Below, piece after piece: positions 45,926 to 61,123 of a stretch of DNA of 64,000 bases (the stretch's first letter is position 1; each line of letters opens with the position of its first letter). The position numbers and the translations under genes are program-made. This DNA comes from Promethearchaeota archaeon (GTDB taxonomy: Archaea; Asgardarchaeota; Lokiarchaeia; Sigyniarchaeales; SOKP01). The stretch covers positions 288,001 to 352,000 of the forward strand of contig JBHLOY010000001.1 of the NCBI GenBank assembly GCA_048939995.1, given 5' to 3'. The notes under the pieces are model-generated. The model saw only the letters and a list, made by a program, of their open reading frames with translations. It was not told the DNA's origin and searched no databases.

Positions 45926-47314
45926 ATGACCGAAAAAGAAGTTGAAATACATCACTCAAAGAAAAACATGGCATCATATGGATTTGCGAAATTTTTAAGT
46001 GAATTTATAGAGATGGCTTTTGCGACCTGGGCATTTGCTTATTATCAAAGTGTACTTGGATTACATCCAATCTATGTGGGAGTAGGATTTGCATTATTCG
46101 CTATTTGGAATGCTGTCAATGACCCTCTTTTAGGTTTTATCACAAATAGACCTTTTAAATTTACTAGAAAGTGGGGACGTAGGTTTCCTTGGATTATAAT
46201 CGGAGGTATTCCTTATATCTTAAGTTATACATTAATTTTTTTACCTATAAATGTAGATCCTGTGTCTGATGCGTGGATACTTTTTGTCTGGCTAATTTTT
46301 TCTACATGCCTATACGACACTTTTAATTCAATATTTTTTATAAACTATGTATCTTTATTTCCTGATAAATTTCGCTCTGTGAAAGAACGTAGAACTGCAA
46401 CAGCAATACAAACACCTATTGGAATCATTGGTATTGCTCTGGGCTTTCTTATACCGCCATTAATAGTTGATGATGCCTTTCCCTTTACTTTTATCATTCA
46501 AGGAGCAATAATTAGTGCGATAGGTCTAGAAGTATTAGCTTTAGCAATACCAGGATGTACAGAAGACCAAATAACTATTGATAAATATCTGAATAAACAT
46601 AAAGATTATGTTAAAGAGACGTCATTCTTTAAATCATTAAAAACAGCGTTTAAACAAAAAAACTTTGTGATTTTCATTATTAGTTACACACTATATCGTT
46701 TTCTAATTATCTCTATTCAAGCATCTATTTATTACGTAGTTACATTTATCATGGGCGAACAAGAAGAAATAATGACTTATCTTTCAGCGAGTTTTCTTAT
46801 AGGGGCACTATTCAGCTCCCCTCTATGGGCTTTATTGGCACAAAAAACAAATAATAATAAAAAAGTTATGGTTATTTCAAGTTTTGTGCTCGTAGCTACT
46901 ACAATTCCATTAATGTTTATTGATAACTGGGTTTTTATGCTTTTTCCGATCGTTTTATGGGGTGTAGGGGAAGGTGGATACTGGGCGATGATAGCTCCAG
47001 TGTTAGGTGATGTAATTGATGAGAGTGTTACTCTCACTAAAAAGAGAGAAGAGGGATTATATAATGGGTTTCTTCAGTTCTTTGGTAGACTTGGGCTTCT
47101 TATGCAAGCTGCTTCTTTTACAATCATTATGCTTATAACCTCATTCCATGTCGATCCTTATTCTGGATCTGCTCTTTTCGGAATAGACCTCTTTTTTGCC
47201 TTAATTCCTGGAGTTGCAATGCTGATTGGTAGCATTATATTTCTAAAATATTTCAAACTAACTCCTGATAAAGTTAAAGAAAATCAAGAAATAGTTAAAA
47301 AATTAGGATTGTAA
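45926..47314 (+). CDS. MFS transporter, glycoside-pentoside-hexuronide (MelB-like) family
   Basis: WNAVNDPLLG, TRKWGRRFPWI, DVIDE, REEGLY. Confidence 0.92.
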   Translation: MTEKEVEIHHSKKNMASYGFAKFLSEFIEMAFATWAFAYYQSVLGLHPIYVGVGFALFAIWNAVNDPLLGFITNRPFKFTRKWGRRFPWIIIGGIPYILSYTLIFLPINVDPVSDAWILFVWLIFSTCLYDTFNSIFFINYVSLFPDKFRSVKERRTATAIQTPIGIIGIALGFLIPPLIVDDAFPFTFIIQGAIISAIGLEVLALAIPGCTEDQITIDKYLNKHKDYVKETSFFKSLKTAFKQKNFVIFIISYTLYRFLIISIQASIYYVVTFIMGEQEEIMTYLSASFLIGALFSSPLWALLAQKTNNNKKVMVISSFVLVATTIPLMFIDNWVFMLFPIVLWGVGEGGYWAMIAPVLGDVIDESVTLTKKREEGLYNGFLQFFGRLGLLMQAASFTIIMLITSFHVDPYSGSALFGIDLFFALIPGVAMLIGSIIFLKYFKLTPDKVKENQEIVKKLGL

Positions 47315-47413
47315 CTCATCTTAAAATCTTTTTTTTTTCAGATTGATAATTTTAAAAAATAATCTTATCTAAAAAGATTATAAGAATTAAATAAAAATTA
47401 GTAAATAACATAA

Positions 47414-48529
47414 ATCATTACTTGGTGGGTCAAAATTCGGTATATTGAATATCAAATAATAATTGGAGATGCACCTCCTGGAATAATAATTGAGGATATT
47501 AAAAATAGTGCTACTCCCGGAAGAATTGATCATATTGAGGAATATATTAATGAAGCAAAAAAGGAAGCAAAACTCTTCCCTAAGGGGATCATTCATCATC
47601 TCTCAACAGAAGCTTATGCTTGGAATTTTTCTTTAATCTATAAAGCCAATAATTTTGATGTTATAAAATGGAAAACTGCTTTCTCTTGGAAAGAACTCAT
47701 CGACGAAGAAAAAAATAAATCATATGAACTTGAAAAGGGCTTATTTATAGGGGTTGTTGCGGGAGTTTTCTTTTTTTTAATAGATGAAAACATCGATAGA
47801 AATTATATAAGATTAGCAGAGATGATTGACGTATTTATTCAAAAGACAAATCAAGAAGCCCCCTTTTTAGTTTATGGATTCTTAGAAAATAAAGAAAAGG
47901 CTGCCAAATTAAAGGCAAATAAAGAGATGCTAGAAAATCTTGCGGACATAAAGGCATTAGTATCCAAGTATGGTGGCGAATTCAAACTTGAAAATTTGAA
48001 AGAAATTAAAATGAACTTGCCTTTCTTAATTAGGGAATATTCACATTATTTTTTAACTCATTTTAAGTCAATATCTTCAAACTATTCAGATCTTAAACTT
48101 AATCAGGTTTTTTTCTTAGATTATGAGGATCTGACAGCCTTAAAAGAAATTGAATTATCTCTTAGTGAAGAATTACAGACTGGTCAGACCGTGGATGAAT
48201 TACTATCTGAATTATTTTTTAAGTATTTAAAACAATATCAGGAAAAAATAGAAGTAATTTTAGAAACTTCCAAATCTGAAAAAATTCAAAGACCAATTCT
48301 TAATAAAACTGAAGTAATTAAGGTAATCATTGAAGAAATTAAGAAAGGCATTAGAAGACAATGCCCTAATTGTCTGAATAATGATAGGAATAAAATAAGA
48401 GAAGTAATTGACCGTGAGAATGTTATAATGGAGAATCCCAACATATATGGTTTTAAATATATTTGCGGGATGTGTGGTCATGAGTTTACTAAAAGAGAGA
48501 TGATTAAAAAAGTCGAGAAACAAGAATAA
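47414..48529 (+). CDS. Hypothetical protein with C-terminal Zn ribbon; frame open 136 codons upstream of tracked ATG 47822
   Basis: Stop-free from 47414 with no ATG/GTG/TTG until 47822; CPNC...CGMCGHEF; exact start uncertain. Confidence 0.7.
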   Translation: MITWWVKIRYIEYQIIIGDAPPGIIIEDIKNSATPGRIDHIEEYINEAKKEAKLFPKGIIHHLSTEAYAWNFSLIYKANNFDVIKWKTAFSWKELIDEEKNKSYELEKGLFIGVVAGVFFFLIDENIDRNYIRLAEMIDVFIQKTNQEAPFLVYGFLENKEKAAKLKANKEMLENLADIKALVSKYGGEFKLENLKEIKMNLPFLIREYSHYFLTHFKSISSNYSDLKLNQVFFLDYEDLTALKEIELSLSEELQTGQTVDELLSELFFKYLKQYQEKIEVILETSKSEKIQRPILNKTEVIKVIIEEIKKGIRRQCPNCLNNDRNKIREVIDRENVIMENPNIYGFKYICGMCGHEFTKREMIKKVEKQE

Positions 48530-48540
48530 ATATTTTAAGG

Positions 48541-49725
48541 GTGGACAACATTCAGATAAAATATGCTAATCGGTTAGAACGTTTACCTAAGTATATTTTT
48601 GCTGCTATTGAAGAATTAAAGGAGCAAAAAAGAAGAGTAGGTATGGATTTAATATCCCTTGGGATTGGAGATCCAGATTTACCCACGCCAGAACTAATTA
48701 TTAATGAATTAATTCAACAGGTAAAAATATCTAAAAATCAGAACTATCCTTCAAGTATGGGTGAAAGTGATTTTAGGGAAGCTGTTGCAAGATGGAATAA
48801 AGTGAGATACTCTATAAATTTAGATCCCGCAACAGAAGTATCACATGTTTTGGGTGGTAAAGAAGGAGTAGCAAATATCGCAAGAGCTTTTATCAACCCA
48901 GGAGATTTAGTCTTATGTCCAAATCCAGGATACCCTGTTTATGAAAATGGAGCGACAAAATTGTGTGATGGAGAACCATATTTACTCCCTTTAACTAAAG
49001 ATAATGGTTTTTTACCTGATATTGAATCAGTCGATACTAAGCTTCTTAAAAGAGCAAAAATAATGTACTTAAATTATCCAAATAATCCCACAGGGGCAAT
49101 TGTTTCTGAAGAATTTTTAAAGAAAATAGTGGATTATGCGGAGGATTATAAATTCATCATAATCTACGACAATCCTTATTCTGAATTCACTTTTGATGAT
49201 TACATCGCACCGTCTCTTCTGCAGTTTAGTTTAGATCATGTTGAGATCAACAGTGCCTCAAAAATGTTTAATATGACAGGTTTCCGATGTGGCTGGATTG
49301 CGGGAAATGCGGATATTATTGAGGGTTTAAGAAATATAAAATCTCAAATCGATTCAGGAGGTCCAATCTTTATTCAAAAGGCAGTAATTAAAGGCCTTAA
49401 TGAATATAATTCTAATAAAAAACCCTTGATCGTCTCAGAAATCATGGAAGTCTATGAAAAAAGGCGAGATCTTTTAGTAAAAGGTCTTAATAACATGGGT
49501 TGGAAAACTGACACTCCTAAAGCGACATTTTATGTTTGGACACAAATACCAAAAGAAGAAGGAAGCAGTATGGAATTTACAAAGAGATTAATAAATGCCG
49601 GGGTAATTGTCACACCTGGTATTGGATTTGGAAAATATGGAGAAGGATTTGTTAGATTTGCATTAACTCAACCTCCTGAGAAAATAAAGGAAGCTTTAAA
49701 AAGAATTGAAAAAGTAATTAAATAA
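48541..49725 (+). CDS. Class I/II PLP aminotransferase (LL-diaminopimelate aminotransferase-like)
   Basis: LGIGDPDLPTP, GGKEG, NYPNNPTG, SASKMFNMTGFRCG, PGIGFG..GEGFVRFAL. Confidence 0.88.
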   Translation: MDNIQIKYANRLERLPKYIFAAIEELKEQKRRVGMDLISLGIGDPDLPTPELIINELIQQVKISKNQNYPSSMGESDFREAVARWNKVRYSINLDPATEVSHVLGGKEGVANIARAFINPGDLVLCPNPGYPVYENGATKLCDGEPYLLPLTKDNGFLPDIESVDTKLLKRAKIMYLNYPNNPTGAIVSEEFLKKIVDYAEDYKFIIIYDNPYSEFTFDDYIAPSLLQFSLDHVEINSASKMFNMTGFRCGWIAGNADIIEGLRNIKSQIDSGGPIFIQKAVIKGLNEYNSNKKPLIVSEIMEVYEKRRDLLVKGLNNMGWKTDTPKATFYVWTQIPKEEGSSMEFTKRLINAGVIVTPGIGFGKYGEGFVRFALTQPPEKIKEALKRIEKVIK

Positions 49726-49743
49726 AAATAAAATATTAATTTA

Positions 49744-49929
49744 TTATTTCTTTTTTGAATATTTACTCCTAAGGTATCCAATTCTTCTCTGATCCTCAAT
49801 TTCTATCTTTCCTTCTGAGGAATCAAAGTAGTCTAAAGAAATCATAACAGGAGCCCTATCAGAATCCCAATTTTTATAATAATCTAATATCATTTTAGGA
49901 TCTAAATTCTCTGCCGCCTTCCTCTGCAT
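49744..49929 (-). CDS. 61-aa hypothetical protein
   Basis: ATG at 49929 follows a perfect GGAGGTGA RBS; the tracked GTG at 49938 lies inside the RBS. Confidence 0.75.
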   Translation of the reverse strand: MQRKAAENLDPKMILDYYKNWDSDRAPVMISLDYFDSSEGKIEIEDQRRIGYLRSKYSKKK

Positions 49930-49959
49930 TTTTTTCACCTCCTTTTGTTTATTTATTTA

Positions 49960-50167
49960 TCACGCAGAGAGAGAAACCCTACCCCAACCTCTTTCTTAAA
50001 ATGTAGTAAAATATTATGTTGAGAGAACAAATCCCAAAAAATTATTAGAAAAAGGTCAGAAAAAGGGGTTTATTCTCTCTTCATAACACTACAACTGGGA
50101 TAAAGGCTCTCTTATAGCCTCCCCATGAGATTGTAGTATTATGTTGTGAAAATATCATTTTTATTGT
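49960..50167 (-). promoter_or_regulatory. Candidate bistable structured 5' leader (riboswitch/attenuator-like)
   Basis: Mutually exclusive long helices with G-U pairs favouring the minus strand; TATA-like TTTATAAG at 50197-50190. Confidence 0.55.
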
Positions 50168-50308
50168 TAGAAATATGAAATCGTGTAAACTTATAAATTT
50201 ACCCATTTCATTCCCATTTGTTAAATTATCCCGACATTTGACTACACAGTTTTGTATAAATCATATTGTTTAAGAATTCTTTAAAGAGACTAATAATTTT
50301 AATGAATT

Positions 50309-51628
50309 ATGGACAAAAAGATTGTTTTAGTTGGAGCAGGGAGTACATCTTTTGGACTAACTATGTTAACAGATTTATTTCATAGTAGGATATTAACAGG
50401 ATCTACTATAATATTACACGATATCAATAAAGAGCATCTAGAATTAATTTTCCAATTAATATCTGCTGAAAATAAGTATCAAAATAATAAATTCAAAATT
50501 GAATACACAACAGAGAGATCTAAAGCCTTCAAGGAAGCAGATTTTATAATTAGCTCGATTGAAGTTGGAGAACGCTTCAAACTGTGGAGGGAAGATTATG
50601 AAGTTCCAAGAAGAAATGGATCAACACAAATTTTGGGAGAATGTGGAGGACCGGGAGGGACTATTCATGCCTTTCGAATTATTCCTTCAATTATTGATAT
50701 TGTAAAAGATGCCGAGAAAATTTGCCCCGATGCTTTTTTTATAAACTTTTCAAATCCCCTTGCACGAGTATGCTTAGCAATTAAAAGAGTAACTAAAAAT
50801 CTAAAATTTATTGGGCTATGTCATCAAATTGGATTTTTAAATAAGCATTTACCTGCCCTAATAAACAAGGCTTTAGATCAAGTAAAGATTAAAGTGGGAG
50901 GCTTAAATCACTTTGCTTTTCTGCTAGGTCTAGAGGAGAGAAAGACTGGAAAAGATTTAATGCCTGAATTCAATTCAAGAGCATTAAATTATTTCAGACA
51001 GAAGGAAGATCGTTTTGAGTATTCAACTCTGACTTTTGAGGTTTATCGAAGATTTGGTTTCTTCCCCTACGTAGGAGATAACCATTTAGGAGAGCATCTT
51101 CAATTTGGTCAAGAATTTATTAAGAGCCAAGATATGATTGATTGGATTGATCAAACAGAATATAATGGAAGATTAATTTTTGAGTATATTATGTGGAGAT
51201 ATAAAAAATTTAAGAAAGGCAGATTCCCCAGAAAAGGCATACTTCCTAAAATATCTTCCAGAGAGAGGGCTATACCAATTATCGAAGAAATTATTCAAAA
51301 TAAAAATGCCTATGAAGTTGCTGTGAATATTCCAAATGACCAAATTATTGATAATTTGCCTCAGGATTTGATTTTAGAATGTTCTGCTATTGTTAATAAA
51401 GAAGGGGTTCATGGAATAAGGATAGGTGTAATTCCAAAACAACTTGCTGCGATATTGAATATAGAAGCAACAATACAGGACATTTGTGTTGAAGCAATAC
51501 TGAAACAATCTAAAGAACTAGCAATAACTTGTTTAGCAATAGATCCTAATGTAGGTAATTTTGAAGCGGCTGAAAGGATATTTAATGAGATAAAAAGCAA
51601 AAATAATTATTACATTTATTTTAAATAG
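50309..51628 (+). CDS. Glycoside hydrolase family 4 (alpha-galactosidase/glucosidase-like)
   Basis: VGAGS, GE.GGPGG, NFSNP, GLCH, GLNH. Confidence 0.92.
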   Translation: MDKKIVLVGAGSTSFGLTMLTDLFHSRILTGSTIILHDINKEHLELIFQLISAENKYQNNKFKIEYTTERSKAFKEADFIISSIEVGERFKLWREDYEVPRRNGSTQILGECGGPGGTIHAFRIIPSIIDIVKDAEKICPDAFFINFSNPLARVCLAIKRVTKNLKFIGLCHQIGFLNKHLPALINKALDQVKIKVGGLNHFAFLLGLEERKTGKDLMPEFNSRALNYFRQKEDRFEYSTLTFEVYRRFGFFPYVGDNHLGEHLQFGQEFIKSQDMIDWIDQTEYNGRLIFEYIMWRYKKFKKGRFPRKGILPKISSRERAIPIIEEIIQNKNAYEVAVNIPNDQIIDNLPQDLILECSAIVNKEGVHGIRIGVIPKQLAAILNIEATIQDICVEAILKQSKELAITCLAIDPNVGNFEAAERIFNEIKSKNNYYIYFK

Positions 51629-51735
51629 ACTAAGTAGAGAAATTTGTTATTATTTTCTTGTGAATGGCATATTTTACGAATGATTAATGAAAAAACCCTA
51701 AACATTTATTTACTGATATTACTATATAATAGCTC

Positions 51736-54700
51736 ATGGGATCCAATGAGAAGAAAAAATCTAGTGAGAGAATTGAACGTGCAACTACCTTTCTTACGAA
51801 ACTTTGGTGGTTTTTTGCTTTTTTAATAGGAATTCCAGTAACTATTTCCACTATTAGTTTCTATATTTTCAACTTCATTATAAGAGATATTTATATCTCT
51901 ATTGGACTTTCAGTGGTTGTCTATTTATTCGCCATTTTCATTTTTTATAAAAGTTTTGACCAATACAGAAATAGTCCTTTCTTTCTTAATAATAAAAACA
52001 ATTTTAGCGCCAGAATTCACACATTTTATATAATTAGTAGCCTTGCTTTAATAGTTACTCCTATATTTGTTTATATAACTCCTGAGGGATATTATTTTGA
52101 ATTACTTCCTTTAATTTCTTATTGTATTTTATATAATATCATTTATTTTTATTATTTTTATAAGCCTATTGAAGATTATGATATCTCTGAATCAAGATTT
52201 AAAAGTGGAATAAGTTTTAAATCATCGTTGAAAGAGTTTCACAATGTAGTGGTTATATTAAATTACATAATTCATATTATTTTCTTAACCTATACCCATT
52301 ACACGAGATTATCATGGCTATTTGCTTTAATATCAAATATTGTTTTCTATATCTACACAATATTAACAACAAGAAATTTAAGGAAGAACTTTAGAATTGC
52401 TATTGACAAAGGGGAATCTATTCTTAACTATTTAATAAAATTTAAGAAAAAGTTCACAATATCGATTATTAGCCTGTGTTTTGTGCTCTTAATTCAATTA
52501 CCATTTGATTTTTATCTAATAAATACCCTATCTGGTGCCATCTATACCTATTTTGATTATATTATGATCATATTCTATTCAATGATCTTCTTCTTTTTAT
52601 ACTTGAAACTACGGATATATGCCTCAATATATTACGAGAAGGAAGTCTTTAAATTATCTAATCAGGGAATGAATGAATCAAATGAAGATTCTTCAAGAAT
52701 TTTAATGAAATATCAAAAATGGAATATGATAATATCTCTGTTTTTCAGTATTTTCGTGCTTTTATTTTCATTAGGGATCAATTTTCCGGTAATAATCATT
52801 ATTTCCTTGCCAGCTATTATTATAGCAACGTATTATGAACAAAAGGCTAACTTTTGCCCAAAGAGATATAGTCGTTATATATTTTTATTCAATAGTATTA
52901 TTATATTAAGTTCAATATTATTTTTAGGAGTTTTTTATCTCGAACTTCAAATAATTCTATTTCTCCTAAGTATCTATTTGGATTTACAAATTTTTTCTCA
53001 TTATAAGTATTTTGATAAAAATAAAATCATTTTGACCCAACATTTAATAGCTTTCATATGCTTCTTAGTAATTTCTCAATTATTTTATCCTTTCATTTCA
53101 TTAATCTATTTAGGGTTAGCTATTGACCCTTTTTTGTTAAATCTTATAAATATCTTAATCTATATATTATTAGTAAGTTTAGCATTATTAGGTACCTTCT
53201 ATTATTTATATTTCCGTTACTTTAGAAAAAGTAAATGGAAGAATTTTAGTCTAATTCTAAATATTGTTATCTTTTTAATCGAAATTCTTTCATTTGCTCT
53301 TATAAATTTATATAGTATTTTTTCTGTAGAATTTAATGTATATATTAATTATGTTATAATAAGTGCTATTTTTCTACCAATAATTTTTGATTTGTTTATT
53401 GGGCTTAACTATCTCCTTGGAATCACATCTAAAAAAATTTCTTTGAAGGAATTATACTACTCATGTTGGATTTTAATTTTAACAATATTTAGTACCCTAC
53501 TTTATTTTTCCCTAAATAATTACATGTTCCTAATAGCCGATTTATTATATCTCTCTATTTTTTCCCTGATTTTACTTAAATTTGGAGTGAAAATTGAGCA
53601 AGTAAATATTAAGATCTTCAAAAAAATTGTGAGTCTTAACTCAATTTTTATCCTTATAGAGCTTTATTGCTTAACATTCTCAATTATTTTTTCGAATCTT
53701 ATTTTTTTAGAAATTTCACATAACCTTTTGCTTTCTTCTTATTTCTCATTGGTTTCAATCGCAATTTTAATAAATATATTCCTAAGGAAGATTATTTCAA
53801 TGGTAATAATAAAAATGATTAATTTGGTTAGTTTACTGTTTTCTACAGGAATAATTTTTTACAATTTATACGCTTATACTCTTGGATCTTATTTTGTTAT
53901 TATTATTCCGATTTTATCTTCATGCCTTTTCTTTTATATTTTCATTTTTTATCTTAAATCATTAATACATGGGTTTTTACCAAAAAACCTTTTTTTAATA
54001 AATACAATAATCATATTCATCTCCTTATCTCTTATACCGTCATTCTATGCATTAGAAAGCATTAAGTTAGGATTAACTGTTGATTTTGTTACAGTATTTA
54101 ATTCAACCCTTTACATTATTCTTGGAATATTGTTTTTTATCACTGTTTTCTCGCCACAATTTAAAATTAGAGAAGGAAGGAAGCGATTTGTACTATTTAC
54201 GCTGATTCTTCTTCTGTTCATTTTAGCGGGAACCACAGTTTTTTATTATTCAAATCTATTTTTATATACTACTTTGTTTGGAGAAACAGTTCCTTTAATC
54301 GCAAGCTCAGCTTTTCTTTTCGTTCCTTTAATATTACTATATAAGTATCAATTTATTAAAATTAAAACTAGTAAAATCCTTATCCTTTTAAACTATCTTT
54401 TTCTCTGGGGAGCGCTAATATCTATTCCAATTGTTTTTTGCTTAGAATTTATAAGATTAGGTAATTTTATTCAAACTTATCTCATGGTAACATTATTAGT
54501 TGTAATATTTTATGGGTTTTTAAAATCTCTATCCCCCATATCACAATCGCTTGAATTTAGAGCATCTTTTGATTATAAAATACGAATAATGCAAATATGC
54601 ATTTGGTTTTGTATTGCAGTCTTGATCTCATTAATTATTCCTTTTTTCTTTTTATTCCAACAATATTATTGGTTAAATCTATTTACAATAAGTTGTACAC

Positions 54701-57700
54701 TAATTCTTTTTTTCATCCTGAATATAGCAAATCTACCTCAATTAGAGAGTTTCAAGCAAAAAGTCTTTGAAAACAAAAGAAGCAAATTAGATTTTTATAA
54801 AATTTACAAAATTTATGAATATTATAAAAATATTATTTATTTTGGACTAATTTTTTCAATATCTTTCTTTTTTTACTCAATCTTCCAAGCTTTCAATCTT
54901 GTTTATATAATTTTTCAATCAACTGATAGCTTATTAACGGGTTCTTTTAACCTAGTAATTTTTTTGATATTTACTTTATTACTCTTACATTTTACAAGTA
55001 AGATAATTAGATTAGAATTTGTTAAAACAAGAGATATAATTGAATTAATAATTTGGTTAACTATAAAATTCAGTATTTTATTGTTCCTCTCTTTATTGCC
55101 CATTCAAATTTCAATTTCTAATAGAATTTTTCTAATAATCCTAGCGTTTGCTATTCAAAGCCCAATTACCATTAACTATCTCGATAAACATATGATGTTT
55201 TTAGAAAATACTAAGCTACTCATGAATAGAGTTATAGGATTTTTGTTTTTTGTAGCAGCTTTAGGGTTTATTATGGAAAATCTATGGAGTGTTAATATTA
55301 GTATATTATACTTTAATCAAAATATTCCAATTTTTATTGGCTTTCTTATATGTTTAATTTTTACATTTTTTAATTATTACATTATACATTTTAATGAAAT
55401 TATCCAAAAAGGAGGGAGATTTAGAATATACAGATTGTATCTAATCTCCTTTCTGTTATTAGTTCTATTTCTATTGATGAATATTCAATTTATTCTAATA
55501 TTTTTATTTGGTGTTCTTGTTATACTTCTTCGAAACAAGAATAGAAATTTTATATGGCATCTAATCAATTATTTCGTAATTAGTTTTCTTTGTTTAATTG
55601 AATTAAATCTTTTTATAATAAAATTTAATCTTCTTCCTTTTACTTATATCCACCCAGGAATTTTTGCTTGGATATATTTTATATCCTTTATTTCTATTTT
55701 ATTTATTTCAATTATTCTTAATTTTAAAAGAATCAATATTCTTGAGGAATTATTATTGGATTTTTTAATTCCTTGTTTAATTTTTACCTCGATTTTAATT
55801 TTCTTTCCGATTCCTATTTTTTATAACATCACAATTTCTATTACTATTCTACTATTTTTAATAAGCTTATTCTTTTATCGCAAAAAAGATGACATATATA
55901 TTTGGTTTATACGTCCATGCGCCTTATTATTTCTCTTTAACCTAATAAGTATTGGCTCTTATTTCATAATATTTAGTTTACCCATCTATCTTGAATACAA
56001 TCTGATATTAAGTTCCACCCTAACTTTTAGTATTATAGGTTTTTGCTTTGCTTTATTTTATCATAATTTAGAAAAGAAATTTAAAAGTAAAGTAATATCA
56101 ATTGTTCTCATCTTAAGTGTCATCAGTTCCTTTATATTTTCTTACCTAATCATAGAAATATCATTTACATTAGCTTTTATTTTTCCATGGTTGATTGCTG
56201 GAAATATGGCTATCATCTTATTATATATCTCCATTGGAATTTATCAATGGAAAATATCATGGGCAATTTGGAAATCAGGGTATTGGATTTGGATATTTGT
56301 TCCGATCGTTAATTATCTTTTAATCGCTCAATCATTCGCAGGAATTGATGTTTATACAAATGCTCTAAATTTATTTGGTTTAAACATTTATGGTTCGTAT
56401 TTAATAACGTTTGTCATTTGTTTATTATTATCATTACCCTTCTGGTATACATGGATTAAAGACCACTTTAATGTAGTTTTGTTTACGATTTGGGGTTTTA
56501 GTTTGTTTTTAATATTTTGGTTTAGTCAAAATGCTTTCTTTGGATTTGATATATTAATTATTTTATCATTTCTGGGAATTGCTATAATATTCCTTATGCC
56601 AATTTTTTATAGATTAGGTTTTTGGAAAATTCTATCTATTCTTTGGCTAATATTCACTTCACTTCTAACCATTTTTATAACATTCATTTTTGTTGGAATT
56701 AATTTCCCTTTAAACCAGATTATTCCATTTGATTTAGTCGTGGTTGGATTTCTTTTCATAGTATTTTCCTTTTTTCCAAATTTGAAAGCTATGAAATACA
56801 TAATATTGATTACAGCTTACTCCGTAGCCATGATTGGTATTTTTTGGATACTATATATCCTTATGGTTTCAATAACCTATAATATTCCTGTATCAATCAA
56901 TATCTCTTTCATTATAATTGGTTTTAGTCTATTTAGTTCACGTATATTGAAATTAAATAAAAAATTATTCAATTTTCTAATTTCTACAATGTTAACTGTG
57001 AATTTTTCACTTTTAACATTCTTCACTTTTATCATGATCCCTCATTTTGAATTTTTCGCGTTATTTTTAGCTATAACTGTTTGTGGAGGATCTCTTCTTG
57101 TATTTAATCGATTTCGAATGTTTTCTCCGATTAAAATGATCATTCCTTTATCTATCTTATCTATGGGAATATCCTTAACATTCTCTACTTTAATCTATAT
57201 TTTTCTACCAAATTCTTTTTTCCTTATATCTGCTGCGTTCATTTCGATAATTTTATTGATTAATTATCCCGTTTTAAAATATATTCGCCACATTTTATGG
57301 TATTCTGTTCCTTTGCCTTTTTGTTTGTTTATTTTGCACTTTTTATCATTACTAGGGCCGTTCCAATCAATATTTAATTTAACCTTGGTTGGATTGATTT
57401 TATATACCTCGATATTTCAAATACTTACGAATTTATTTTATGGTAAAGCCAGGAGTATAAATCTTTTAGCTTTTGTTTTAAATTCTACCTATATATCCCT
57501 ATTTATTGCTATTCTCAGTCCCTTATTTATCGTCTATAAGATTCTTGAATTTTTTATAATTTGGTCAATTTTGATTTTATTATGTATTAGATATATAGAG
57601 AAGGGGGGTCAAGAACTTCTCAAAAATAAGGCAATTACCATTTTACTTAAAATTAGTAGTTATATAGCATTATTCCTCTACCTTGAAATTTCTCTTCTAA

Positions 57701-60216
57701 TTACAGGTATATTAAATGAATTTATAGTGCCTGAATTCACGAGTAGTGTTTTGATTTTTTTTGGAACCTTACTTTTATTATCATTACTAGATATTTTCCT
57801 TATTAAGAAAGTTAGTAGCAAGTTAGTTTATCCAATTAATGTGATTTGCTACATTTTAATTTCAATTTATTTATTTATATTTCTAAATCGCTTTTTAGCT
57901 ATAGATATACAATTTATTTTCTTAAATCTAATCATATTATTGGCGATGCAATTTTATACCATAAAAATCATATTTTCTCTTCTAAATCAATTAGAACGTT
58001 ATGATAGAGAGAAGTTAACCTCTTTACAAAAGATTTTTCAAACGATTTTACTTAATACTATATTCGTTGTTATTAGTTTATTTGGATCATCTTATTTCAC
58101 ATCAATATTCCTAAATGTTTCACCATTGCTTAGTGGATTCTCTGCTATTTTCTTGTTTCTAATGATTTTTAGTTTTCTAATGTTTAATCTGAATCAGTTA
58201 GTAAAGATTAGGTTTAAGCTAAAGGTGTTATTTGTTTATTATCTAATATTTATAGTAAGTTTTGTTTCATTTTTTACCTCTTATATTATGATTTTCAATC
58301 TTATTACTATCTTATATCTGAGTCTATTTTCTCTTATTATCACTAGTTTGTTATCTTACTTTATCTCCTTGCTAAACAAAATATATATAGAAAAATTAGG
58401 GACTGAGATGATAAAGAAAGTTTATTCATTTTTACAATTTATTCTTTACTTAGAAATTTCATTGATTTTCTATAGTCAATTTTCCGTTTATTTCAATATA
58501 TTCGAAAGTATATTAACGTCTCAAATAGTCCTAAGTTTAATTTCCTTAATCGAATTAAAATTTATAAAAAAAGTAAAAGCCTCCTATGTTCTTCTTATTC
58601 ACACGATTAGCTTTTTTAACATTAGTTGGGCTCTATACGTTATTATATTTCAATTTACTTACAATTATTTTAATTTAAATATCATTTTCTTCATTTTAAT
58701 GCAATTTTATACGAATCACCTATACTTTATTACTAAAGCTGAATTTAATCCAACAAAAAAACCTAATTTTAAGAAATGGAAATTAATTAGACAAAAAATA
58801 ATTGGATCTTGTTTCTACCTTGCTTTATTAGTATATATTGTGCAGTATTTAATTCTATTTATTCCTGATATTCTGCTAGTAGTTTTAATCTCAAGTATAT
58901 TACTTCATGGTTTAATGTATTTAGATAAATATGTGTCTAAATTTTTAGCTACCTGGTCAAAATATCTAATTATATTTTCTGGGATCTTAATTATAGGTGT
59001 TTCTATTTTGTATTCGTTGAATTGGATCTTAACTATTTCTATACAAATCATTCCTATAACAATACTCATAGTTTTACTTGAAGTAACCTATTTGATAAGA
59101 TTATTACATCTGTGGAATATTTTAAAAAGTGAGTTTGCTAAGAATCGAAATTACCTCATTATCTTATTCTATTTAGATATCATAACTTGGCCTCTTTTTT
59201 ATTTAAACTTGCAAATTTATAATTTTCTGAATATCTTGTTGATATTTTTTATAATATTAATAATAATTTCTCTGATTGATATTCGGATAAAAGCCATTAA
59301 ACCGAGTCTAAGAAGAACAATCTTTAAGGTTGGTTATACAATTTTTGATATAATATTATCAATACAGATATATACGTTATTAGAATACATAATTCAACCA
59401 AACTTACCATTAAATCTTTCAATAGCAGGTCTAGTATTTATTATAGTAATTGGTTTTTTAATAAAGCCTTTTAAAAAGCGTAGACTTATTTCATTCTTTT
59501 ACTGGTTCTTTATATATCTATTCATTAGCCTTATCATTTTTTACGCCTATTTGAATCTTTGGAGTTTTACAGTAGTTGTATTTGGAATACTATTATATCC
59601 GTTTATTTTCATGCTTGAGGAGTTGAGAGAATTATTTAATCATTTCTTAGATTATCTTCAGAAGCTTATAATCAAAATTAAATATATCATAATAGCTGGT
59701 TATAAAAAATTGATTAAATTCATTAAAGACAACTTCAAGATAGTCCGAATTTTAATTTGTATAATCTTTGGAATAATGATGGGTTTTATCTTTTCTGAGT
59801 TTGTTTTAGTCATTTTAAATCTATATCACTCAATTCTGTTAGCAATAGCTTCTTTTGGGATTATTTATGCTTTTACTGACTATTTATGGTACTTTTTTTA
59901 CGTCAAAAAGCTTGGAGATGTAAGACAAATATTCAGACAAAAGTTAAAGATATTTATAATTATTTGGATTAGCTTCTCCGTCTTTATATTTACATTAATA
60001 CTACCCTATGTTGGTTCTGTCCTTTATTCATTATTTCTTATCTTAATACCATTTTGGGGTTTAGGATCAATTTTAATCTGGGTGGTTAATCGAAAAGAGG
60101 CTAAACAAAAAATTTCGGTAAAAACTAGGTTCTTTATAACCTTGTCTACAATAGTAATATTTGTTATTTGGGTAACAGTTATTCTAATTTGGTACTTTTT
60201 TGAAATTCGTGTTTAA
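51736..60216 (+). CDS. Giant polytopic membrane protein of unknown function (2826 aa)
   Basis: 8.5-kb stop-free frame in AT-rich DNA; continuous TM segments with Lys-rich loops. Confidence 0.88.
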   Translation: MGSNEKKKSSERIERATTFLTKLWWFFAFLIGIPVTISTISFYIFNFIIRDIYISIGLSVVVYLFAIFIFYKSFDQYRNSPFFLNNKNNFSARIHTFYIISSLALIVTPIFVYITPEGYYFELLPLISYCILYNIIYFYYFYKPIEDYDISESRFKSGISFKSSLKEFHNVVVILNYIIHIIFLTYTHYTRLSWLFALISNIVFYIYTILTTRNLRKNFRIAIDKGESILNYLIKFKKKFTISIISLCFVLLIQLPFDFYLINTLSGAIYTYFDYIMIIFYSMIFFFLYLKLRIYASIYYEKEVFKLSNQGMNESNEDSSRILMKYQKWNMIISLFFSIFVLLFSLGINFPVIIIISLPAIIIATYYEQKANFCPKRYSRYIFLFNSIIILSSILFLGVFYLELQIILFLLSIYLDLQIFSHYKYFDKNKIILTQHLIAFICFLVISQLFYPFISLIYLGLAIDPFLLNLINILIYILLVSLALLGTFYYLYFRYFRKSKWKNFSLILNIVIFLIEILSFALINLYSIFSVEFNVYINYVIISAIFLPIIFDLFIGLNYLLGITSKKISLKELYYSCWILILTIFSTLLYFSLNNYMFLIADLLYLSIFSLILLKFGVKIEQVNIKIFKKIVSLNSIFILIELYCLTFSIIFSNLIFLEISHNLLLSSYFSLVSIAILINIFLRKIISMVIIKMINLVSLLFSTGIIFYNLYAYTLGSYFVIIIPILSSCLFFYIFIFYLKSLIHGFLPKNLFLINTIIIFISLSLIPSFYALESIKLGLTVDFVTVFNSTLYIILGILFFITVFSPQFKIREGRKRFVLFTLILLLFILAGTTVFYYSNLFLYTTLFGETVPLIASSAFLFVPLILLYKYQFIKIKTSKILILLNYLFLWGALISIPIVFCLEFIRLGNFIQTYLMVTLLVVIFYGFLKSLSPISQSLEFRASFDYKIRIMQICIWFCIAVLISLIIPFFFLFQQYYWLNLFTISCTLILFFILNIANLPQLESFKQKVFENKRSKLDFYKIYKIYEYYKNIIYFGLIFSISFFFYSIFQAFNLVYIIFQSTDSLLTGSFNLVIFLIFTLLLLHFTSKIIRLEFVKTRDIIELIIWLTIKFSILLFLSLLPIQISISNRIFLIILAFAIQSPITINYLDKHMMFLENTKLLMNRVIGFLFFVAALGFIMENLWSVNISILYFNQNIPIFIGFLICLIFTFFNYYIIHFNEIIQKGGRFRIYRLYLISFLLLVLFLLMNIQFILIFLFGVLVILLRNKNRNFIWHLINYFVISFLCLIELNLFIIKFNLLPFTYIHPGIFAWIYFISFISILFISIILNFKRINILEELLLDFLIPCLIFTSILIFFPIPIFYNITISITILLFLISLFFYRKKDDIYIWFIRPCALLFLFNLISIGSYFIIFSLPIYLEYNLILSSTLTFSIIGFCFALFYHNLEKKFKSKVISIVLILSVISSFIFSYLIIEISFTLAFIFPWLIAGNMAIILLYISIGIYQWKISWAIWKSGYWIWIFVPIVNYLLIAQSFAGIDVYTNALNLFGLNIYGSYLITFVICLLLSLPFWYTWIKDHFNVVLFTIWGFSLFLIFWFSQNAFFGFDILIILSFLGIAIIFLMPIFYRLGFWKILSILWLIFTSLLTIFITFIFVGINFPLNQIIPFDLVVVGFLFIVFSFFPNLKAMKYIILITAYSVAMIGIFWILYILMVSITYNIPVSINISFIIIGFSLFSSRILKLNKKLFNFLISTMLTVNFSLLTFFTFIMIPHFEFFALFLAITVCGGSLLVFNRFRMFSPIKMIIPLSILSMGISLTFSTLIYIFLPNSFFLISAAFISIILLINYPVLKYIRHILWYSVPLPFCLFILHFLSLLGPFQSIFNLTLVGLILYTSIFQILTNLFYGKARSINLLAFVLNSTYISLFIAILSPLFIVYKILEFFIIWSILILLCIRYIEKGGQELLKNKAITILLKISSYIALFLYLEISLLITGILNEFIVPEFTSSVLIFFGTLLLLSLLDIFLIKKVSSKLVYPINVICYILISIYLFIFLNRFLAIDIQFIFLNLIILLAMQFYTIKIIFSLLNQLERYDREKLTSLQKIFQTILLNTIFVVISLFGSSYFTSIFLNVSPLLSGFSAIFLFLMIFSFLMFNLNQLVKIRFKLKVLFVYYLIFIVSFVSFFTSYIMIFNLITILYLSLFSLIITSLLSYFISLLNKIYIEKLGTEMIKKVYSFLQFILYLEISLIFYSQFSVYFNIFESILTSQIVLSLISLIELKFIKKVKASYVLLIHTISFFNISWALYVIIFQFTYNYFNLNIIFFILMQFYTNHLYFITKAEFNPTKKPNFKKWKLIRQKIIGSCFYLALLVYIVQYLILFIPDILLVVLISSILLHGLMYLDKYVSKFLATWSKYLIIFSGILIIGVSILYSLNWILTISIQIIPITILIVLLEVTYLIRLLHLWNILKSEFAKNRNYLIILFYLDIITWPLFYLNLQIYNFLNILLIFFIILIIISLIDIRIKAIKPSLRRTIFKVGYTIFDIILSIQIYTLLEYIIQPNLPLNLSIAGLVFIIVIGFLIKPFKKRRLISFFYWFFIYLFISLIIFYAYLNLWSFTVVVFGILLYPFIFMLEELRELFNHFLDYLQKLIIKIKYIIIAGYKKLIKFIKDNFKIVRILICIIFGIMMGFIFSEFVLVILNLYHSILLAIASFGIIYAFTDYLWYFFYVKKLGDVRQIFRQKLKIFIIIWISFSVFIFTLILPYVGSVLYSLFLILIPFWGLGSILIWVVNRKEAKQKISVKTRFFITLSTIVIFVIWVTVILIWYFFEIRV

Positions 60217-60256: not shown

Positions 60257-60418
60257 TTAAAGATTTCTCTTTTTCCACTTTCTTATATAAGACTTAAACT
60301 CGTCATCTTTCATGCCAATTGTATTTACTTCATTAACATGACTGGACGATTTATGATTGGGAGCATTTTTCTTAAAATTTAATGTCCAATCATAATAAGA
60401 TACTGCTTTTGATGACAT
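60257..60418 (-). CDS. Unannotated 53-aa basic-tailed protein
   Basis: MSSKAVSYYDWTLNFKKNAPNHKSSSHVNEVNTIGMKDDEFKSYIRKWKKRNL; fills the gap after the giant gene. Confidence 0.5.
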   Translation of the reverse strand: MSSKAVSYYDWTLNFKKNAPNHKSSSHVNEVNTIGMKDDEFKSYIRKWKKRNL

Positions 60419-60577: not shown

Positions 60578-61123
60578 ATGGAAAATGAACAAAATAATAC
60601 AAAAATTAATGTAAGAGATTGGATCATTCTCAGTACTACAATGATCGGAGCTGTTTTAACAATTCTTGCCTTGATATGGCAATTTAAACCTTCTTATGGT
60701 ATTATAACCGTAACTTTTCTTCTATTGCTTTCTTTCATATTGTTTGTAAATTCTGTGTCAGCAAATTCAAAAGCAAATTTTGAAATTAAGTCAAAAAGAA
60801 TGAAAGAAAAACAGATCTTTAGATTTGTTTCATTTGCGGAATACACTTTTGGTCTTGGCTTTACTCTTGTAATAACTGCTTTTTCTATTCTTGGCTATAA
60901 ATATTTCATAGATTTTGCAGGTCGAAGTTTAATAGCACTAATTCTACCAATTAGTTTTATGATCGTTACATGGATAATGATCTTTATTTATAATACTATT
61001 AATTACTCTGGAAGGCCACTTAAGAGTTTTAGAAGTTTAAAGAGAAATTTATGGATATTAATGGAAATGTTATGTTTATTTTGTATAATCTTAGATTTTT
61101 TTGAAATTATATTAATTCCATAA
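60578..61123 (+). CDS. Hypothetical ~5-TM membrane protein
   Basis: 181 aa, hydrophobic; AGGGG RBS. Confidence 0.8.
   Translation: MENEQNNTKINVRDWIILSTTMIGAVLTILALIWQFKPSYGIITVTFLLLLSFILFVNSVSANSKANFEIKSKRMKEKQIFRFVSFAEYTFGLGFTLVITAFSILGYKYFIDFAGRSLIALILPISFMIVTWIMIFIYNTINYSGRPLKSFRSLKRNLWILMEMLCLFCIILDFFEIILIP

Follow-up and report, generated by a model that had tools for sequence, protein, structure and literature searches.

The window analysed here is a 64,000-nt stretch of contig JBHLOY010000001.1 (positions 288,001 to 352,000 of the forward strand; assembly GCA_048939995.1) from a Promethearchaeota archaeon of the class Lokiarchaeia. In DNA of 22-26% G+C it contains a stop-free frame of 2826 codons at positions 51736-60216 on the forward strand, which an earlier, sequence-only reading of the window had proposed to encode an almost all-membrane protein of 2826 amino acids (aa). 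The frame is indeed open throughout, with no internal stop, and we refer to it as the giant gene and to its product as the giant protein. We are confident that the giant protein is an undescribed, single-copy giant membrane protein of Lokiarchaeia; it matched no known family or fold in the searches made. We hold with equal confidence the order of its parts, which are an 8-helix N-module, an N-terminal arm with an array of A repeats, a 23-helix core that contains a Trp-rich hub, and a C-terminal arm with an array of B repeats. The gene and its parts lie as follows.

51736..60216, forward strand: giant gene, 2826 aa plus stop, with ~87-89 predicted membrane helices and the N-terminus inside
51736..52671, forward strand: N-module, aa 1-312, 8 helices; AlphaFold2 (AF2) model with a predicted local distance difference test score (pLDDT) of 83.7 and a predicted template modelling score (pTM) of 0.79
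53833..54213, forward strand: repeat unit A, copy 1, aa 700-826, ~4 helices, with a terminal IP....LE.I.LG motif; 130 bits with the unit hidden Markov model (HMM)
54217..54606, forward strand: repeat unit A, copy 2, aa 828-957; weaker similarity spans aa 666-1017
54736..54834, forward strand: cytoplasmic loop rich in lysine and arginine (K/R), aa 1001-1033, with 8 K/R in the loop
55657..57627, forward strand: conserved core, aa 1308-1964, 23 helices, the block common to the most distant relatives
56242..56685, forward strand: Trp-rich hub, aa 1503-1650, ~65% mean identity, the best-conserved part of the giant protein
57625..58386, forward strand: repeat unit B, copy 1, aa 1964-2217, ~8 helices, with LYLEISL ... 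IKKV ... MQFYT; 225 bits with the unit HMM
58393..59109, forward strand: repeat unit B, copy 2, aa 2220-2458; 227 bits with the unit HMM
59617..59739, forward strand: longest cytoplasmic loop, aa 2628-2668, charged and amphipathic, starting with conserved E2628 and E2629

The giant frame is a genuine gene, conserved in Loki-type Asgard archaea, since full-length collinear orthologues with 77%, 61%, and 60% identity to the giant protein occur in independent assemblies, the gene is single-copy within its own 3.75-Mb genome, the ratio of nonsynonymous to synonymous substitution rates (dN/dS) against two orthologues (0.18 and 0.20) indicates purifying selection, and homologues of 3,940-4,908 aa also sit on closed single-contig genomes. 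Among 5.8 billion proteins, a word-indexed search recovered 87 relatives of 1,570-3,754 aa, all of them from Promethearchaeota/Lokiarchaeia-type assemblies and none carrying a named function. The extreme composition of the protein (18% Ile, 17% Leu, and 13% Phe, together 47.5%) and the existence of the N-module as a separate gene in some genomes might be taken as signs of an artefact, either a misassembled fusion of smaller genes, which the sequence-only reading had kept in view, or a chance open frame in AT-rich DNA, but the conservation data refute this explanation and leave it practically no chance: an 8.5-kb frame without a stop at 25% GC cannot arise by chance, a dN/dS of ~0.2 argues against it, and a misassembled fusion is excluded because the full-length frame is conserved in many genomes and homologues occur in closed ones.

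The survey of Asgard genomes that had been proposed from the sequence was run with a profile of the core, which detects the giant gene in 117 of 400 genomes, all of one class and nearly all of one order. The gene is present in 101 of 134 genomes of the window's GTDB family, in 14 of 19 genomes from three other families of the same order, and in 1 of 3 genomes from another family of the same class. The core profile gave no match in ~240 genomes from the rest of the families covered, nor did it in the other Asgard classes searched, and several genomes of the window's GTDB family that are 96-99% complete have no detectable copy. Members of the family share 36-77% identity with the giant protein over its full length, and their lengths, between 2,524 and 4,908 aa, differ because units are gained or lost and the N-module may be split off. 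Three orthologues annotated as 'hypothetical protein' (CEE42_09440, HWN80_01540, and ACFE8V_02415) are true members with the same hub and units, and none of them has a Pfam domain or a described function. Most genomes carry one copy, and one closed genome of 6.04 Mb carries two paralogues of 4,908 and 3,146 aa (L025 and L028). Another family member, with 46% identity to the core, lies on contig DATKTW010000160.1 (L040), which is labelled 'Candidatus Nanopelagicaceae bacterium' and is probably a mis-binned Lokiarchaeial contig.

Searches for known families were uniformly negative. Neither Pfam-A (hmmscan of the whole giant protein) nor NCBIfam yielded a family at E <= 1, Piezo included, and Pfam found nothing on relatives of 4,908 and 4,296 aa, nor does any other relative scanned or listed carry a Pfam domain. 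A sequence profile search of the PDB with the core gave no match at E <= 10, and when an HMM of the core was run exhaustively against 1.84 billion protein representatives, all 55 matches were members of the giant family or fragments of them. The characterised family that might have claimed most of the chain was thus not found in any of these collections. In the ESM Atlas the related clusters are without names, and only one cluster has a named Pfam family, DUF2339, which 13% of its members carry at a weak score of 0.81. The segment-wise AF2 modelling and Foldseek comparison suggested earlier was carried out on the N-module and the core, and it returned no significant fold match: the best Foldseek E-values were 0.32 for the core and 0.23 for the N-module, and the best VIA-align Z-scores were 8.5 over ~100 residues and 7.8, respectively. 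Such scores (E 0.23-0.32; Z 7.8-8.5 over ~100-150 residues) are within noise for helical models. The top Foldseek rows for the core, none of them significant, consist almost wholly of soluble solenoids made of hairpins (TPR, HEAT, and a designed toroid), and the rows that Foldseek and VIA-align listed for the two models contain no Piezo chain. We found no description of the giant family in the literature.

The giant protein is almost wholly membrane-embedded, with 64% of its residues in predicted helices and a longest predicted loop of 41 aa, so that the earlier claim that it lacks a soluble domain holds along the whole chain. Counting the helices required some care. A dynamic-programming hydropathy counter, run on an alignment of 19 orthologues, found 83-90 helices in the giant protein, but it found 86-97 in shuffled copies, and the hydropathy count alone is therefore no evidence. 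What distinguishes the real chain is the placement of its charges. Within the predicted helices there are 34 charged residues in the real chain versus 105 in the shuffles, and the K/R content of successive loops alternates, with a lag-1 correlation of -0.68 versus -0.01 in the shuffles (minimum -0.22). Stretches of 41-63 aa that are free of K/R, each long enough in our count for two helices, number 35 in the real chain versus 14 on average and at most 19 in the shuffles, and together with 17 such stretches of 17-35 aa they give a predictor-free count of 35x2+17 = 87 helices. The 70-85 transmembrane segments estimated by eye in the sequence-only reading were thus right in being very many and slightly low as a figure. 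The autocorrelation of K/R density along the chain peaks at 63 and 122 aa. With the parity corrected once, near aa 1234-1265, K/R account for 188 of 768 inside-loop residues versus 8 of 249 outside-loop residues. Turns on the outside have a median of 4 aa and do not exceed 16 aa, whereas the median inside loop is 14 aa long and the longest 41 aa; the outside loops amount to ~250 residues in total, which exposes ~9% of the chain. The long helices of the AF2 models coincide with those of the counter in 8 of 8 cases for aa 1-312 and in 23 of 23 for aa 1308-1964. The giant chain is, we conclude with high confidence, a row of ~44 transmembrane helical hairpins with the N-terminus inside, and we are just as sure that very short, uncharged turns on the outside and longer, K/R-rich cytoplasmic loops give it a strongly basic cytoplasmic face. 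Well-conserved polar residues within the predicted cores of its ~88 helices number only 14, and the three of these in the conserved core are uncharged. In the sister family, the frames are 3,146-4,908 aa long and contain 96-144 helices by the same crude hydropathy counter, with longest loops of 71-84 aa.

The sequence-only reading had described the protein as built from repeats of ~128 and 256 aa and had pointed to a pair of each kind. We compared 128-aa windows of the orthologue alignment all against all with hhalign (861 pairs), taking 50% probability as the bar, and only two repeat systems reached it. System A relates aa 666-880 to 790-1017 at an offset of ~128 aa, and its best pair (aa 707-830 and 835-960) has a probability of 99.5% and an E-value of 1e-22; system B relates aa 1962-2145 to 2218-2396 at an offset of ~255 aa, and its best pair (aa 1985-2105 and 2241-2356) has a probability of 99.2% and an E-value of 6e-20. 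Reversed-profile controls gave a probability of at most 3.7% and a score of at most 28 versus 113-129 for the repeats. In the single sequence of the giant protein the repeat pairs are 25% and 26% identical, with z 6-7 versus shuffles, and the Smith-Waterman scores of the A and B pairs exceed those of every other window of the giant protein. Self-BLAST with composition correction detected no off-diagonal match in the giant protein or in any relative. Both pairs noticed at the outset are therefore borne out at their places against reversed and shuffled controls, as are the unit lengths of 128 and 255 aa, but the repeats do not make up the whole chain: the two arrays together cover ~27-31% of it, window-versus-window hhalign scores outside them do not exceed the reversed-profile controls, and the remainder keeps a 63-aa hairpin rhythm without a detectable sequence repeat. 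A candidate third, degenerate B copy, at offsets of 242-247, scores 21-29 versus the control maximum of 28 and is not above the controls. Units A and B have no detectable relationship to each other, and the unit HMMs match no reversed sequence.

The arrays behave as tandem multi-helix units, as had been suspected, with ~4 helices in the 128-aa unit and ~8 in the 255-aa unit, and both gain or lose whole units between relatives. According to the unit HMMs, 20, 38, 17, and 10 proteins have 1, 2, 3, and 4 A units, respectively, and relatives have 1-6 B units; the A region falls into length classes of 244, 386, 513, and ~640 aa and the B region into classes of 399, 526, and 778 aa. Alignment of the A region across its length classes is too gappy for folding, and the AF2 models are those of the N-module and the core.

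At the N-terminus, the window protein is, with high confidence, the fused form of the family, because the N-module stands alone in relatives. In four fetched loci it is a separate open reading frame (ORF) of 312-314 aa (L004:5259-6200, L010:13302-14240, L020:5394-6338, and L021:5081-6022) that overlaps the start of a protein of ~2,540-2,710 aa by 4-23 nt, and stand-alone forms of 310-318 aa make up ~90 clusters. The split state may be either a gene fission with likely translational coupling or ancestral.

The AF2 model of the core has a pLDDT of 73 and a pTM of 0.60, and within it confidence is lowest at the hub, around the loop of aa 1534-1552. Counting a hub residue as kept if it is present in >=90% of 33 sequences (the sister family included) and in >=80% of the 13 most distant, the residues kept across the order are W1512, G1515, W1519, P1523, N1526, D1538, G1553, S1554, P1568, W1586, W1595, N1599, F1601, P1622, W1630, W1637, and F1647. 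The Trp-rich motif noticed earlier is present at aa 1503-1519, within this best-conserved stretch, and what the giant family keeps most deeply is Trp, Pro, Gly, and Asn at the ends of helices. Helix 46 has a kink at P1523/N1526. D1538 and T1541 are located in the longest conserved outside loop, aa 1534-1552, where the AF2 model has a short helix, and N1599 is in the next outside loop; D1538 and N1599 are invariant, and T1541 is invariant among 20 closer orthologues. Second in conservation only to the hub is a 50-aa block at the K/R-rich loop of aa 1001-1033, which has 61% mean identity over 19 orthologues. The charged amphipathic segment that had been noted near the C-terminus corresponds to aa 2628-2668, the longest cytoplasmic loop.

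The surroundings of the giant gene in the window include the following features.

45926-51628: MFS_2 sugar transporter, class I/II aminotransferase, and GH4 glycosidase genes, upstream of the giant gene and co-oriented with it
51705..51712, forward strand: TATA-like box TTTATTTA, centred ~28 nt before the ATG and read directly from the sequence
60257..60418, reverse strand: small ORF for a hydrophilic product of 53 aa, convergent, 41 nt after the stop of the giant gene
60578..61123, forward strand: gene for a small membrane protein of 181 aa, downstream of the giant gene, with no Pfam family

A gene for a TrmB-family regulator lies downstream in divergent orientation, and together with the upstream genes it resembles a sugar-use locus that the giant gene breaks up. 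The order aminotransferase, GH4 glycosidase, giant gene is kept in the window's GTDB family: among the 22 loci listed, in which L001 and the window are the same locus, GH4 is directly upstream of the giant gene in 14, and aminotransferase/GH4 synteny is seen in 14-17. Neighbours in the sister family are unrelated (histidine synthesis genes, PhoU, amylase, and amidohydrolase), and no operon partner is conserved across the order. The TATA-like box suggests that the giant gene may have its own promoter and a leaderless or short-leader mRNA, and we read the gene as a stand-alone unit. The 53-aa ORF is a syntenic neighbour of the giant gene. In 12 of 20 homologue loci tblastn matches it from end to end at 36-72% identity, mostly again in convergent position. 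Pfam finds nothing on it, and it may be an unannotated microprotein. The gene for the 181-aa membrane protein is syntenic in 10 homologue loci from three genera of the window's GTDB family, and in another genus a Liv-type ABC transporter takes its place.

What might a protein of this kind do? For the membrane-shaping scaffold, mechanosensor, or channel proposed in the sequence-only reading, neither a family, nor a fold, nor a conserved operon partner tips the balance. The reading that we lean towards, tentatively and with low confidence, is that the giant protein has a structural role, as an array of hairpins within the membrane plane, and does not work as an enzyme or pump. The hairpins would line up next to one another as a long ribbon or solenoid, taking up and organising a patch of the bilayer, the length of the arms would be tuned by gain or loss of whole units, and the conserved hub and basic cytoplasmic face could provide specific contacts of the protein with itself or with partners. 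We infer such a role from the lack of a soluble domain, the scarcity of conserved polar residues in the helix cores, and the tolerance of unit gain and loss. The confinement of the deepest-kept Trp, Pro, Gly, and Asn to helix ends is consistent with it, as is the lack of a transporter or enzyme family or fold and of a conserved operon partner, and the solenoid-type Foldseek rows for the core model, although not significant, would also fit. Several observations weigh against a structural role. The hub is far better conserved than the arms, which a passive filler would not need, and its invariant Asp and Asn, its Thr (among the 20 closer orthologues), and its kinked helix at P1523/N1526 would fit a binding site, a gate, or an active site equally well. 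Moreover, the solenoid-like Foldseek rows all have E > 0.3, and the hairpins may form a compact bundle instead of a ribbon. Finally, the role would have to be a dispensable one, because several nearly complete genomes of the same family are without a detectable copy.

An alternative is that the giant protein is a channel, transporter, or force sensor in which the hub, possibly as an oligomer, forms a gated pathway or sensing site and the arms serve as levers or extend the membrane footprint in the manner of Piezo blades. We give a channel, sensor, or binding function, with low confidence, nearly as much credence as a structural role, because the hub is conserved and has an Asp, a Thr, and an Asn facing outside. 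The architecture speaks for it, with strong conservation of the central hub and, on either side, arms composed of 4- and 8-helix repeats; D1538 and T1541 sit in the longest outside loop, which contains a short helix in the model, with N1599 in the next outside loop, helix 46 has its P1523/N1526 kink, and AF2 confidence falls where conservation peaks, as can occur at interfaces or mobile elements. However, neither Piezo nor any other channel or transporter family appears at E <= 1, no fold match of the core or the N-module is significant, the helices of the core have no conserved charged residue, and the outside loops add up to just ~250 residues.

Distinctly less probable is a function in lipid handling or membrane protection like that of Arc3A (DUF2339, PF10101; Pseudomonas aeruginosa PA5114), a protein with 35 helices, an unusual helix density, and no residues suggesting catalysis, which prevents lysophospholipid accumulation (PMC8926400). 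A dense field of helices could sequester or buffer damaged or detergent-like lipids, or shield the bilayer from lipases, without classical catalysis, and the giant protein shares the description of dense helices and no catalytic residues in a more extreme form. The ESM Atlas cluster in which 13% of members carry DUF2339 points the same way. Homology to DUF2339 was rejected, as PF10101 gives no match in the giant gene's own genome at E <= 0.01 and none above cut-off in 301 Asgard genomes, and Pfam has no match on the giant protein itself. Furthermore, ester phospholipases do not act on archaeal ether lipids, and there is no Arc3B-like or acyltransferase neighbour. A separate 975-aa frame in a related genome (L111, at G159:C198:4661-6241) has a sub-threshold DUF2339 match of 28.3 bits versus a cut-off of 33.6; it is not that genome's giant gene.

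The least of these functional alternatives, and one to which we give very little credence, is an enzyme integral to the membrane, for instance a polymerase, ligase, or transferase of glycans or lipids, with its active site in the outside-facing polar cluster of the hub. The invariant Asp and Asn in the hub's outside loops, with a Thr that is invariant among the 20 closer orthologues, could be read in this way, and GH4 directly upstream in 14 of the 22 loci listed, with the MFS sugar transporter and the TrmB regulator nearby, hints at sugar chemistry; but there is no family or fold match to GT-C, Wzy, ligase, or MBOAT proteins, the sister family does not keep the GH4 synteny, the giant gene appears to have its own promoter, and only a single acidic residue is invariant.

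Returning to the structural hairpin array, a bolder version of it would make the giant protein the founder of a new class of membrane protein, namely a single-chain, in-plane solenoid of 44-70 transmembrane hairpins whose arm length is set by 4- and 8-helix units, which mechanically shapes, stiffens, or partitions the Lokiarchaeial membrane and whose hub serves self-assembly or force sensing. We regard this as a long shot. Cells of Lokiarchaeia have long protrusions and are not known to have a rigid wall. A link between the giant protein and the protrusions is circumstantial only, in that the family occurs in the order that holds the closed genomes with homologues of 3,940-4,908 aa.

If the topology is right, no other single polypeptides predicted so far to lie almost wholly within the membrane come close in helix number to the giant protein (an estimated ~87-89) and its relatives encoded by closed genomes (roughly 120-144). 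This raises the questions of how such a chain is inserted and folded, of what use 330 kDa inside the bilayer with almost nothing outside may be, and of whether it has a part in the unusual membrane architecture of eukaryotes' closest archaeal relatives. Homologues are present in closed genomes, and if these are of cultured species, proteomics, cryo-electron tomography, and cryo-electron microscopy would be feasible; the quantised gain and loss of units is a natural experiment on the evolution of repeat membrane proteins.

Among the closest known systems are Piezo1 and Piezo2, the eukaryotic mechanosensitive channels, Piezo being cited as the record holder for transmembrane passes (PMC9256749). 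Like the giant protein, Piezo has very many helices per chain and a distinct conserved module outside the repeat arrays. Its arms consist of tandem 4-helix units, to which the 128-aa unit of ~4 helices, present twice in the giant protein and 1-4 times in relatives, may be comparable, at least in helix number. The differences are considerable, however. Piezo has 38 helices versus ~87-89 in the giant protein and up to ~144 in its relatives, its conserved module is C-terminal whereas that of the giant protein is central, and the giant protein is without a large extracellular cap or soluble beam, with no outside domain of more than 19 aa. Neither a sequence family match nor, for the modelled core and N-module, a significant fold match connects the two.

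The likeness between the giant protein and Arc3A is one of kind, not of homology. Both are large, dense arrays of helices without residues that suggest catalysis, and in both the number of helices varies between relatives, but Arc3A is bacterial, has 35 helices and a partner, Arc3B, and its function concerns ester lysophospholipids. The soluble alpha-solenoids (TPR, HEAT/ARM, and designed toroids) offer a third comparison. Their Foldseek matches to the core all have E > 0.3 and TM-scores of at most 0.22, and they are water-soluble with repeats of ~34-45 aa, whereas the hairpins of the giant protein are ~63 aa long, hydrophobic, and membrane-spanning. What the giant protein has in common with them is its architecture, in which antiparallel helical hairpins follow one another in a long series that lengthens by whole units.

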